In this document: positions 1 through 9,500 of the stretch, piece after piece
Position numbering within the stretch: the first letter of the stretch is position 1
How the letters are laid out: the number at the start of each line of letters is the position of its first letter
IMG/VR virus record: IMGVR_UViG_3300029288_004596
Span: 64,001-128,000 of that record
Strand: one strand, 5' to 3'
DNA: 64,000 nucleotides
From: a virus
Taxonomy: Duplodnaviria; Caudoviricetes
Made by a program: the position numbers and the translations under genes
The notes under the pieces: generated by a model
What the model was told of the DNA's origin: nothing
Database searches by the model: none
Seen by the model: the letters and a program-made list of their open reading frames with translations, nothing else

Positions 1-429
1 AGGCACTATCTTTGATATAGCATCAATTACTCTAGTGTGTGCCTGCCAGCGAGCTTTAGTGGAAGGTGGAATACATCCTATAGTCCTATTGTATCTACAC
101 TTCCTATAAGGAGTTTTTCTTCTTCTTCTACTTCTTCTTAGAATACTTCGTAGTTTTACTGCATCCTTGACCCACCATGGTGTGTTCAACTGAATGTTTA
201 AAACTACCTTTGTTTCAGTAGCCACAGTAACTCCTGTTCTTTTGCTGCCAGGATCAATCCCTATGACTACATCTCTTGTAGCTCTTGATGATGGCTCCTT
301 CTGTAGTATTATGCAGAAGATGCCTTTGTGCCAGTAGGCTTTAGCTTCCTTCTTTTCCATTAGTTTCCTAGCCCTCTTCTCAGAGCATGGCATCAATGGT
401 TGTTTGTTTGAGTCTAATACAGGAACCAA
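1..429 (-). CDS. IscB/IsrB-family (OMEGA, IS200/IS605) RNA-guided RuvC nuclease, N-terminal part; runs off the window edge
   Basis: Not in the ORF track. My translation from TTG at 429 (AAGGAG RBS at 440-435) is MVPVLDSNKQPLMPCSEKRARKLM...VVIGIDPGSKRTG...LRRSRRRRKTPYRKCRYNR...PPSTKARWQ. It shows the PLMP motif, RuvC-I GIDPG and an Arg-rich bridge helix. The RKTP/PPSTKARW pattern looks more like IsrB, but the HNH region is outside the window. Confidence 0.9.
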   Translation of the reverse strand, partial: MVPVLDSNKQPLMPCSEKRARKLMEKKEAKAYWHKGIFCIILQKEPSSRATRDVVIGIDPGSKRTGVTVATETKVVLNIQLNTPWWVKDAVKLRSILRRSRRRRKTPYRKCRYNRTIGCIPPSTKARWQAHTRVIDAISKIVP

Positions 430-444
430 AGTGTCTCCTTAGTT

Positions 445-659
445 TGGGTTTACACCCCTTGTTAAAATCGCTTCGACTGTCGGGAAACTCATTGAAAGAA
501 GGCTAGCGAAACACCCTCTATGTGCAGTGTAACCTTTCGATGTTACTACATCCCTTACATTGCCTCTAAGGCCAGTCTAGTCAACATGTTACCCTTGGAA
601 CTCGCAGCTCGTTAAGCTCTAGGTCCCAAGCCCTTAGCTTTAACTATAGGGTTTACGAC
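445..659 (-). ncRNA. putative omegaRNA scaffold of the IscB/IsrB gene
   Basis: About 215 nt of non-coding sequence directly upstream of the PLMP gene. It begins GTCGTAAACCC...TAAAG..AAGGGCTTG, resembling the usual omegaRNA 5' hairpin, and contains GTTGACTAGAC, GTAAC-ATCGAAAG-GTTAC and GGGTGTTTCGCTAGCC. Boundaries are approximate. Confidence 0.75.
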
Positions 660-714
660 TCCTTGATTGTCTACTCTAGCTTAAATCCTTAGCAATAGCT
701 ATAGGGTTTATGAC
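628..714 (-). repeat. two imperfect 32-nt direct repeats (714-683 and 659-628) separated by a 23-nt spacer
   Basis: GTCATAAACCCTATAGCTATTGCTAAGGATTT versus GTCGTAAACCCTATAGTTAAAGCTAAGGGCTT (26/32 identical). The spacer is AAGCTAGAGTAGACAATCAAGGA. Confidence 0.8.
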
Positions 715-716
715 AC

Positions 717-1190
717 CTAGTCAATGTATCCTGTGGCTAGCCCTGAGGCTACCATCTCCTCTGAACCTATGTATCTTCCACTCTCCACCAGTTCCTTATA
801 CTTCTCTACTGGTATGTCTGTGTTGCCTGTGATAAATCTTTCCAGCACTGAGTCGTCAATCTTCAATCCCTCAGCCGCTATCTGCAGTTCCTTGTAACTC
901 CTCCAGGAAGAGCACTGTTCTGTGATATTATGAAACAGGAAGGTGGCGTACTTGCTTACCAACCTGTTCTTTCCAGCCGCGAATATCATTGTGGCGCTTG
1001 AAGCCACATATCCTAGTCCCACAGTGTCTGCGTTTCTCATCTTAAGAGCAGTGGCTATTCCCATAGCTGCGGGGACTTCTCCTCCTGAACAGGATATCCA
1101 GACAGTGATGTCTTCTTCAGCATCCAGTATCTCCTTGATAATGCTGTCAGCTACATCCGAATCAATCTTTGTGACTATGATATTTACCAT
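717..1190 (-). CDS. ClpP-like (S14/S49) protease
   Basis: ISCSGGEV, GYVASSATMIFAAG (catalytic Ser region), NRLVSKYATFLFH (catalytic His) and a C-terminal GLATGYI follow the ClpP layout. Confidence 0.8.
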   Translation of the reverse strand: MVNIIVTKIDSDVADSIIKEILDAEEDITVWISCSGGEVPAAMGIATALKMRNADTVGLGYVASSATMIFAAGKNRLVSKYATFLFHNITEQCSSWRSYKELQIAAEGLKIDDSVLERFITGNTDIPVEKYKELVESGRYIGSEEMVASGLATGYID

Positions 1191-6500: not shown

Positions 6501-9500
6501 AACCTGCGGCTACTACTGTGTAAGGATCTCCTCCACCGCCAGTTCCCCCTCCCTTGAGGGACATGTTTATAGCTCTTATCCCTTCCTTGGCCTGGGTCTT
6601 GCCCATGTTCTCCGGGAGATATTCTGGGTATAGAACTCTTTCAGGTTTGAAGATCCTGCCTATAGTAGAGTTGACTAGTGGTCCCCATAGGGTTTCTCGA
6701 GTGGCTATTGGGCCGGACACTACATAAGGTCTGTCTGGGTTGTCCCCCATGGAGTGGCGCTGTTCCCACCACATAGGGTCTAGGAATCTCATCACTGGAG
6801 CTAAGGGGTGCCGGGGGGTAGGCAGCAGAGAGTGAGCCCAGTAAGCGTCTGACCTCATGTCAGCATTCTCAGCGTCCTGCCAGTTGGAGTAGGCCAGCTG
6901 ATATGGATCTGGCATGTAGTATTTTATCTTGTCCCCATAGATAGGCGATCTTGAGCCAAATAGCCACAGCCTTCCTCTCCTTACCGGGACATATCCTGAT
7001 TCTAACTGTTTTTTGGTATCCTCTGGAGTGGTGCCTGCAAGATAATTATCCATGCCTGGGTGGAGTTCATTGTATCTCTCCCAGTCATTGAGGTGTGAGA
7101 AGGCTATCTTGGCGTTGGCTCTTACATTGGCCTTTAGTTCATTAGGGGAGGTTCCAAAGAGGTTCTCTGATTCCCAGTTCACATAGTTCCAGGCTTCTAT
7201 TCCTAGTACAGCCGGTACTATTCTCTGCATTATCAGACCCCTGAGGATCTTGCCTCCAGAACCCATGGCCTCAGGTCCGAGTCCTAATCCGAAAGCTTCC
7301 AGAGGTTTATTGAGTCTTGAGTTGAAGAAGTACCAGGTGAGAGCTGACCTGGTCATATCCTCAGGATCATCCACTCCCCTCCATAGGGCAGTGGTATACT
7401 GTTTTATAGCTGTAGAGCCTGTGATATTGCTCAGGACATCAAAGAAGTTTCCTCCGTTTTGCCAGGCTCTGTTTATAGACTCTAGTATTGACTGGTGCTC
7501 TTTTATAAAAAGTCTCTGAGGACCATTGCTTATCTCAGGATTCCAAGTATCCCAATACCCGAGCTTGGCATCTACCATTGCTTCAGCAGTTAATCTTATG
7601 TCTTCTGAGATATGTTGCGAACCTACCAGTCCTTGATACGCTCCTCTAGCTCCTGATATTCCTGTCAGCTGATCTCCCAATAGATAACCATATCTGACAG
7701 CTAAGGCGTCTCTCGATTCATTGATAGGCACATCCAAGTTTACTATGATATCTTCGATTCCTCTTCCCAGCTGACCAGGACCACCTAGGTTTATATTTCT
7801 CAGAACCTCTTCTTTTATAAATTTCCTGGCAGTGTCATAGCCAGTGAGAGGTTCTTCTTTCCCAAGGAACATATCCACTAGAGGATTCACCGAGTTTCTA
7901 GCAGTCTTCTTCCCCAGGGTTCTGGCTGGGTCCCTGTCAAACTCCTCAAGGAAGTATCTGAACTCATCTGACCTTATAGCTTTTCTGTCTACATTTAATA
8001 GATAATGCAGTAGATGGCTGTTGGAATCCAGGTTATTGGCAGCTACCCTGAGATCTATAGGGAGATAGCCCCCATTGGCCGTCACATCATCTAGGATTCC
8101 TTCCAGGACATTCTGAGATATATTGCCTTCCTTTTTCAGGAAGTTTACCACAGACCTTATGGATTCTATATTTCTTACAGGATCAAAGTCTGGGTTGTTG
8201 TATATATCGTTTAACGCAGCGGCTGGGTAAGTGGAACCTGGATTCATCTTGGCGAATATGGATTTTACTTTCCCAAACCATGACTGCTCTCTTTGATTGA
8301 GTTGCAGAGTTCCTCTAGTCCCACCATGTCCAAATCCCAGCGCTCCTCTGACTCCTCCGGTCTTAGGGGTGTCAAGATAGTCTGTGAGGTTCTTGTAGAT
8401 GTCTTCCACAAATCCGCTATCCGCAGTTAAAGAAGTGTAGCCTTTGCCCAGTTCTCCTATAGAAGCGTTGCCCAGTTCTGAGAACCTGGAACCTATAAGA
8501 GTGTTGCCAGCTATAGTCAGGTCCTGCCCCTGAGCCGCCAGGTGCCTAGTGAGAGGCTGTCTAGCCACAGCGTTCTGGTGGATAATATCAAAGGTTCTCC
8601 CAGTTCCTCCTTTTAGCCAGCCAAAGAACTGAGTTGGGGAGAAACCTTCCAGGTATGGGAGCACTGGGATCTGCATGTTCTGGTCTACCCAGTCTATAGC
8701 TCTTCCTAGAGTTTCCTTGAAACCTCTCAGGTCTCTGACAGTTCCTTTTTCATCCATCCAGATCTGCCCTACAGCAGTGGAGTTTATTATATCCTGAAGA
8801 CCTTCTCTGTGCCCTGATAAACTCAGGGAGGCTCTTAATCTCGCTGAGGATTCCTGAGCCTGCCTCACCACATCTGCTGAGAACCTGTCTCTATTGGAGA
8901 GCACGTCATTGACAGTGACTCTTCTAGCTCCCAGCTGCTCCATGAGAGCGTCCATGTAAGTGGGGCCTCTCCCAGCAGCCATGTTGCTAGCTTTGGCCTT
9001 GGTGACGACTCTTCTTTGCAGAGCGTCTATAAACGCTTCCGCATGGACTTCTCTGGCTCTCTGCAACTGGGCTCTAAGATTATCTGACAGAGGAAAATCT
9101 TTATTGAACAGGGTTGTCAGATTGCTTTGGTCAAAAGCTCTTTCCAGATTCTTCTGGATCTCCGGTATGTTTCCTCCAACTGAGGCCACGAAATCCCTGT
9201 AAGCGTCTTCCTGAATGACGGAACTTCTAAGGGTTCCTCCATGCAGCCACTGGTTTATTCTTGAAGAAGGAGCCACTCCCCTATTGTATCCCAGGAGCAG
9301 GTCCACCTGTTCTCTGGAGAACACTCCTGTGGCTCTGAACCTCTCTTCAGCCACCTGCTGTCTCAGCCTCAGAGGCAGAGTCTCTGACATAGCCGCTCTT
9401 ATCTCATTGGATAAGTTGGTTATGGAGAGGTTTCCTAGCTTCTCGGAACCGGTGGCGAACTTAGACACAAAGCGTTCTACGCCATTTATGATGTAGCCGC

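Follow-up and report, generated by a model that had tools for sequence, protein, structure and literature searches.

A phage-borne IsrB-omegaRNA unit preceded by a degenerate partial copy of its omegaRNA 5' end, best read as the scar of an earlier event

A nuclease gene that had remained unannotated in a jumbo phage belongs, in our reading, to an otherwise standard IsrB-omegaRNA unit that has been immobilised in the phage genome, and the partial second copy of the omegaRNA 5' end found upstream of this unit would be the scar of an earlier insertion or of a faulty excision or deletion. We give this reading a probability of roughly 0.6. Hereafter the upstream copy is referred to as R1, the 5' start of the scaffold itself as R2, and the 23-nt segment that separates them as SP. 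The first-pass annotation of the same DNA had left two options for this arrangement, a nascent one-spacer array or a scar of repeated insertion. The data presented here favour the scar and speak against the array, since R1 has lost bases that are invariant in the family and the arrangement does not recur.

Results and Discussion

The locus and its genomic setting

The window analysed in this work is a stretch of 64,000 nt that corresponds to bases 64001-128000 of IMGVR_UViG_3300029288_004596, a 216,899-bp IMG/VR virus record representing a jumbo phage with a CheckV completeness of 93%. On the minus strand of the window, a ClpP-like gene is followed in order by R1, SP, R2 with the remainder of the omegaRNA, and isrB (Table 1). 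The protease ORF (1190..717) ends in a TAG stop codon at 719-717 and R1 begins after a further 2 nt, in agreement with the original placement of the first repeat relative to the ClpP-like stop. The protease gene points the same way as isrB, and read-through transcription into the omegaRNA and isrB is likely to originate from it. A scan for promoters and terminators on the minus strand between these two genes returned neither a promoter-like nor a terminator-like site, which makes the earlier proposal of read-through from the late operon plausible. In the preprint of Meers et al., the IscB scaffold is described as the transposon end and the guide as lying outside the element; transcription has to be supplied from outside, and the genes upstream show a strong bias towards the orientation of the element. 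In the light of that preprint, read-through at this locus would be the norm for IscB-type elements and no special feature.

Table 1. Features of the protease-isrB interval, in window coordinates
Feature	Position	Strand	Basis or remark
ClpP-like head maturation protease gene, 157 aa	717..1190	-	Pfam CLP_protease E 8.6e-17; PHROGs head maturation protease E 5e-15
Common upstream context of R1, 4 nt, overlapping the TAG stop	718-715	-	29/36 with extension
R1, decayed partial copy of the omegaRNA 5' end	714-683	-	26/32 versus R2
SP, 23-nt segment at the guide position	660..682	-	30 nt 5' of the scaffold variable in relatives
omegaRNA scaffold, from 659 to the isrB ribosome-binding site	430..659	-	Conservation, nhmmer, covariation
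R2, scaffold nt 1-32, taking in the first hairpin	659-628	-	Conserved across relatives
isrB 5' part, residues 1-143	1..429	-	TTG start 429-427; Pfam RRXRR

Both an ENA assembly and a Logan contig are identical in sequence to the record, though they probably derive from one and the same sample. In a sequencing-run index, one DNA run matched (contigs of a landfill metagenome, probably the source sample) and no RNA run did; among the contigs of that landfill run, the locus is covered by one bridging contig, with no variants and no joints. Relatives of the phage locus proved elusive: blastn against GenBank phages gave no match, scans of IMG/VR with the protease and with a 305-aa neighbour protein retrieved no related phage, and the protease had no word-sharing homologue among 5.8 billion proteins. 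A nearby 391-aa exonuclease-like protein was also tried as a route to related phages and was discarded, its homologues being 35-41% identical and not syntenic.

The gene encodes a complete IsrB

The isrB gene runs 585 nt past the window start (G000:C1:63416-64429, equivalent to L001 7416-8429), encodes a complete protein of 337 aa and is single-copy in the phage genome. An exact look-up of the protein sequence returned no record. Its sole Pfam match is RRXRR (residues 2-152, E 1.6e-39). Residues 2-322 align continuously to the IsrB of Desulfovirgula thermocuniculi (DtIsrB, PDB 8DMB; E 3.7e-23) and IscB structures match the N-terminal ~115 residues only; from this one-piece alignment, and from the restriction of the IscB matches to the N-terminus, it follows that the protein has no HNH insert. 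The RuvC residues D59, E150, H219 and D222 are invariant in an alignment of 32 sequences (this IsrB and 31 relatives), and the RuvC site looks intact from this conservation. The domains that characterise IsrB are thus all in place, namely PLMP, RuvC-I, an arginine-rich bridge helix, and RuvC-II and RuvC-III with no HNH between them. From the PLMP, RuvC-I and bridge-helix portion alone, the gene had been placed in the IscB/IsrB family, with the advice that the rest be inspected for HNH and for RuvC II/III; the full 337-aa sequence confirms the family and identifies the protein as an IsrB, with HNH absent and the catalytic residues intact. By analogy with characterised members, this IsrB is predicted to be an RNA-guided nickase.

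All members of the clade that is 60-75% identical to this copy reside on metagenome or viral contigs, and the nearest cellular relatives are 40-49% identical (loci L168-L229). These cellular relatives are multi-copy in Ardenticatenales (Chloroflexota) and in filamentous cyanobacteria (Microcoleus, Calothrix, Scytonema).

The omegaRNA scaffold begins exactly at R2

The same conserved blocks that precede isrB in the phage are found 5' of the gene in relatives with 45-75% protein identity, and an nhmmer profile built from six relatives located the scaffold, ~230 nt in length, 5' of isrB in most of ~160 loci. The 5' module of the scaffold consists of GTCAATAA, a hairpin with a TAAAG loop, and then GGGGCTTG. 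Compensatory changes were observed in 7 of the 14 predicted pairs that make up the first hairpin and the next helix. In a covariance model of this 5' module R2 scores 35.2 bits, a value that is somewhat favoured by the inclusion of R2 in the seed alignment. When the scaffold was searched with the Rfam HEARO model (RF02033), as the first-pass annotation had recommended, the outcome was mixed: the match, at 461-659, covers the whole model and begins exactly at R2 position 1, but it reaches 19 bits (E 0.35) against a gathering threshold of 83 bits. The scaffold is a divergent relative of the curated HEARO family that falls below Rfam's own threshold for membership.

The 30 nt that lie 5' of the scaffold are mutually unrelated in 66 distinct relative loci, a pattern that would be expected of the guide region, and the boundary between variable and conserved sequence coincides exactly with R2 position 1. 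Because a conserved module is immediately preceded by 30 variable nt, R2 marks the true start of the scaffold and SP lies exactly at the guide position. The omegaRNA-like region that had been noticed 5' of the gene is therefore real, with R2 as its exact 5' start, and the 23-nt segment does sit where the guide should be. In one relative (L005, 69% protein identity), the scaffold begins 16 nt before the stop of an upstream 569-aa gene (L005:2472-2487), so that the whole guide at that locus is coding sequence of the 569-aa gene.

The duplication of the omegaRNA 5' end is real and rare

R1 and R2 are identical at 26 of 32 positions, and the claim that the first 32 nt of the omegaRNA region are duplicated 55 nt upstream was thereby borne out. 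According to a repeat finder, the match reaches 4 nt further upstream (AGGT versus AGGA), with 27/32 in its own register and 29/36 overall. Rarity was assessed by searching the 400 nt upstream of each scaffold for matches to the first 32 nt of that scaffold. The best upstream self-match amounted to 10-19/32 in 121 distinct related loci, and the chance of 26/32 over 400 offsets is ~1e-6 by a binomial estimate. R1, R2 and the 23-mer have no further copy anywhere in the 216,899-bp genome, and Tandem Repeats Finder reported nothing at R1-SP-R2. Elsewhere, an upstream omegaRNA copy was found at only 1 of ~123 related loci, L142 (IMGVR_UViG_3300039338_000053). Given a match of 26/32 here, 10-19/32 in the other loci and a single further case, the R1/R2 repeat is real, far above chance and rare.

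The case of L142 is of a different kind. As at the phage locus, the omegaRNA 5' end recurs upstream of the functional copy; unlike it, the duplicated unit is ~240 nt long, arranged head to tail at 91-98% identity 5' of a 463-aa IscB, whereas R1 comprises 32-36 nt at 81% identity and is split from R2 by unrelated sequence. At L142:921-1488 the omegaRNA is near-completely duplicated in tandem, with a period of ~249 nt. The gene-proximal guide at that locus consequently corresponds to omegaRNA sequence of the first copy, and its high identity and head-to-tail arrangement indicate that the duplication was recent and simple. The R1-SP-R2 arrangement as such did not recur, since the 121 loci have no upstream copy above 19/32 and L142 is a plain tandem.

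That such accidents happen at these loci, as L142 demonstrates, lends some credit to the idea that R1 arose through replication slippage, in which a local 55-nt tandem duplication was followed by divergence of its copies and no second insertion or excision took place. Under this scheme SP would belong to the duplicated unit and, at the 81% identity seen over the 32-nt part, should retain ~19/23 identities. Aligned without gaps, however, it agrees at 6/23 positions with the 23 nt that follow R2 and at 9/23 with the 23 nt that precede R1 (P <= 1e-5), so that both 55-nt tandem-slip registers fit poorly. Local alignments of SP were likewise at chance level: p was 0.33 with the full scaffold and 0.35 with the part of it that follows R2, 0.34 with the 70 nt that precede R1, and 0.51 with the element's far end. 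The candidate origins of SP as decayed scaffold, as a copy of the sequence preceding R1 or as a copy of the distal end were all rejected on these grounds. The silence of Tandem Repeats Finder points in the same direction. We therefore consider slippage unlikely. The homology between R1 and R2 is instead bounded sharply at about -4 and +32, an interval that equals the hairpin plus 8 nt.

R1 belongs to the same lineage as R2 and has decayed

Two peculiarities tie R1 to R2. A TA at positions 5-6 is common to both and occurs in 0 of 30 relatives, and both carry an extra A before the inner stem together with the U:A pair typical of the closest clade; these shared characters indicate that R1 derives from the same element lineage as R2. 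Since then, the two copies have come to differ by ~19%. None of the 30 relatives varies at positions 20, 21, 29, 30 and 33, yet R1 is altered at all five; its loop has changed from TAAAG to TATTG, and GGGCTTG has become GGATTTA. The changes proper to R2 number two, each merely creating a G.U wobble. On the family covariance model R1 remains below the listing floor of 7.9 bits, versus 35.2 bits for R2, and nhmmer with the 5'-module profile left R1 unreported even at E <= 100. The predicted hairpin of R1 is nearly as stable as that of R2 (-7.3 versus -7.4 kcal/mol), with its closing pair broken. That R1 is still recognisable at such a divergence and still folds into a stable hairpin could reflect some constraint. 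The strand of R1 equivalent to the first-helix strand of the scaffold pairs, as read by eye, over ~4 bp only with the scaffold partner strand. From its sequence we take R1 to be a non-working repeat.

These observations bear directly on the proposal that R1, the 23-mer and R2 form a functional repeat-spacer-repeat unit, a mini-array or proto-CRISPR in which R1 would either delimit or shield the guide at its 5' end or supply a second guide. In one variant, the second guide would be the 3' end of the protease gene, with the scaffold acting in trans, and the guide would be uncoupled from the flank and retargetable. The layout formally agrees with this proposal, and R1 has kept its -7.3 kcal/mol hairpin. 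Near-identical repeats under constraint, by which a CRISPR array is recognised, are nevertheless absent, the identity being 26/32 and the five bases invariant in relatives being gone from R1, which the family model misses. The expectation of a repeat under constraint accordingly failed, and so did that of a recurring arrangement, which is missing from the 121 related loci. In Cas9-like RNAs, moreover, the repeat 5' of a spacer is dispensable for the function of that spacer.

A comparison with CRISPR-associated IscB, for which DelIscB is reportedly the example in the 2021 work of Altae-Tran, is instructive in this respect. Such loci, with repeats and an anti-repeat, are known and give the mini-array a precedent (PMC12660989), and the phage locus resembles them in having a non-coding region 5' of the nuclease gene in which scaffold-like repeats surround a short unique segment. 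DelIscB, however, has true repeats, an anti-repeat duplex and an HNH-bearing IscB (PMC12660989), whereas the phage locus offers a single degenerate copy of 32 nt, lacks both HNH and any long anti-repeat pairing, and has no recurring counterpart in relatives. The ~4 bp available between R1 and the scaffold partner strand compare poorly with the long repeat/anti-repeat duplex used by CRISPR-associated IscB; in DelIscB this duplex could be truncated experimentally (PMC12660989). Taking these points together with the guide matches described below, we regard a functional mini-array as very unlikely.

The persistence of the hairpin could alternatively mean that R1 has been co-opted as a signal other than a guide, be it a 3'-stabilising hairpin of the protease mRNA, a weak attenuator or a part of the omegaRNA promoter. 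In favour of such a role, the R1 hairpin begins 2 nt past the stop codon, with a short T-rich stretch after it, and a weak sigma-70-like pair (TTGCTA, 18 nt, GACAAT; 8/12, identified by eye) extends over R1 and the 23-mer at window 660-695 (-). Yet this pair is below the threshold of the scan, which yielded no promoter or terminator site on the minus strand, although the promoter type of the host may differ; a transcript starting from the pair would retain almost no guide; and the hairpin is weak, with a broken closing pair. A signalling role of this sort seems to us quite unlikely.

Origin and possible targets of the segment at the guide position

SP ends in AAGGA and, together with the first base of the scaffold, reads AAGGAG, a Shine-Dalgarno-like motif. 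The same motif precedes isrB in this phage, and in many relatives a Shine-Dalgarno-like motif is present within the last 12 nt of the guide region. SP is thus most likely native intergenic DNA that once carried the ribosome-binding site of the next gene, as far as its sequence allows us to judge.

The first-pass annotation had also suggested that the guide might be insulated from the flank or retargeted for phage use, and that it be searched against phage sequences. In the phage's own genome the best match to SP is 18/23, and at least one match of this quality is found for 12.5% of shuffled guides; the own-genome target was rejected for this reason. The match in question lies at window 7630-7652 (-) within a 2031-aa gene, and its 8 scaffold-proximal bases are identical. 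An exact 18-mer scan of IMG/VR with the guide returned three matches, approximately the chance expectation. One of the three, on an otherwise unrelated phage contig (L243:4192-4213), extends to a 22-nt exact match made up of the guide segment and the first scaffold base; it coincides with the start codon of a tail-fibre-like gene of 370 aa and has a chance probability of ~0.05. The L243 phage has a GC content of 33% versus 45% and no proteins in common with the phage studied here, and was consequently dismissed both as a related phage and as an empty site. The search therefore did produce one long exact match, which is probably due to chance, and no convincing target in either the own genome or IMG/VR. 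With SP ending like a native Shine-Dalgarno sequence, the notion of an insulated or retargeted guide was not sustained.

The 22-nt match at the start of a tail-fibre-like gene would agree with a mini-array. It would provide an example for a working one-spacer proto-array whose spacer was acquired against another phage, and if this were true the locus would represent a live intermediate between OMEGA and CRISPR-associated IscB or Cas9 that is used in phage-phage conflict. Considering the ~0.05 probability of the match, the lack of common genes and the difference in GC content, we judge this version highly improbable.

Element ends, apparent loss of mobility and proposed behaviour

In relatives, a hairpin that mirrors the first one of the omegaRNA, again with the loop TAAAG and with a stem rich in G and C, is found at the 3' end of isrB and is followed by ~10 conserved bases (L003:1308-1327, L005:3699-3718, L013:3497-3516 and L035:3508-3527, among others). 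Folded as single-stranded DNA, this 3' hairpin reaches -6.8 to -8.9 kcal/mol in five relatives, versus -1.2 kcal/mol for the homologous stretch in the phage (L001:7405-7440), which is altered by many C-to-T and G-to-A changes. The hairpin at the proximal end has been retained in the phage element. A search for Y1_Tnp gave no match in the 93%-complete phage genome and was positive in control genomes, a result that leaves room for a host-encoded TnpA. With the distal hairpin decayed and the phage devoid of a Y1 TnpA, the element is seemingly unable to transpose. It lacks two attributes of mobile IS200/IS605-type (ISC) elements, a second subterminal hairpin and a Y1 TnpA in the phage; on this basis it looks immobile, with nuclease and RNA intact.

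An ATG is found 21-24 nt past the 3' hairpin in 9 of 12 loci viewed. Elements of this family may sit between the ribosome-binding site of a gene and its start codon.

A different situation was encountered in G001 (IMGVR_UViG_3300023213_000432), a 327-kb sequence with five full-length IsrB copies (loci L094, L095, L097, L100 and L246), each with an omegaRNA and with differing upstream sequences, and with a Y1 TnpA (E 4.7e-42). This looks like an IsrB element that is actively transposing inside a huge phage; G001 is also possibly a cellular contig filed as viral.

Set beside IsrB OMEGA systems (ISC1, e.g. 8DMB), the phage element is alike in its domain order, its PLMP, its split RuvC with bridge helix, its lack of HNH and the alignment of its C-terminal region to 8DMB, as well as in having the omegaRNA upstream with a 5' guide position and, in relatives, hairpins of the same type at both ends. 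It is unlike them in residing in a phage as a single copy without TnpA, in the decay of its ORF-distal hairpin, in the decayed copy of its proximal end 55 nt upstream, and in a HEARO score of 19 bits versus a threshold of 83.

From this anatomy, together with the conservation of the unit, the pattern of decay, the fact that the duplication is rare and the lack of TnpA in the phage sequence, the following picture can be proposed for the preferred reading, that of an immobilised unit with a scar. The locus would hold a single-copy ISC1-type OMEGA element lodged in a short intergenic gap of the phage head-gene region, the working unit being isrB and the ~230-nt scaffold that starts at window 659. 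Transcription of the protease gene probably reads through into this unit, and the guide would be the DNA just 5' of the scaffold, i.e. the last 16-23 nt of SP. On the established logic of OMEGA systems, IsrB and its omegaRNA would together nick any copy of the phage locus that is free of the element, and recombination might then copy the element into the nicked locus. The net behaviour would be that of a free-standing homing endonuclease gene, which makes a role in homing or retention the most likely one. R1, in turn, would be a copy, 32-36 nt in length, of the transposon end on the omegaRNA side, comprising the hairpin bound by TnpA and 8 nt, which was presumably left by a prior insertion or by a faulty excision or deletion and decayed later. 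A remnant that is centred on the TnpA-binding hairpin fits an aberrant cut by TnpA.

This proposal has counterparts among the free-standing homing endonuclease genes of phages, such as T4 seg and mob, in which a nuclease gene likewise occupies a short gap between conserved genes. Genomes without such a gene should be cut or nicked by its product, and the gene should then spread by recombination at co-infection, a concept that has been reviewed (PMC13565253). OMEGA systems have been framed as composite homing endonucleases in a recent review (PMC13565253). The phage element would differ from the classical genes in being RNA-guided instead of relying on recognition by the protein, in that a nick is expected instead of a double-strand break, and in that its homing is a proposal.

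Conclusions

The contribution of this analysis is mostly one of clarification: an apparent mini-array is best read as a decaying scar by an otherwise standard IsrB-omegaRNA unit. The apparent loss of transposition, with nuclease and guide RNA kept, is what would be expected of an element that lives in phages as a homing gene guided by RNA. Nature does produce partial duplications of the omegaRNA 5' end, as seen in 2 of ~123 loci. Such duplications are the proposed raw material from which CRISPR-associated IscB arose, an origin that would become testable at this locus if the scar described here were functional.
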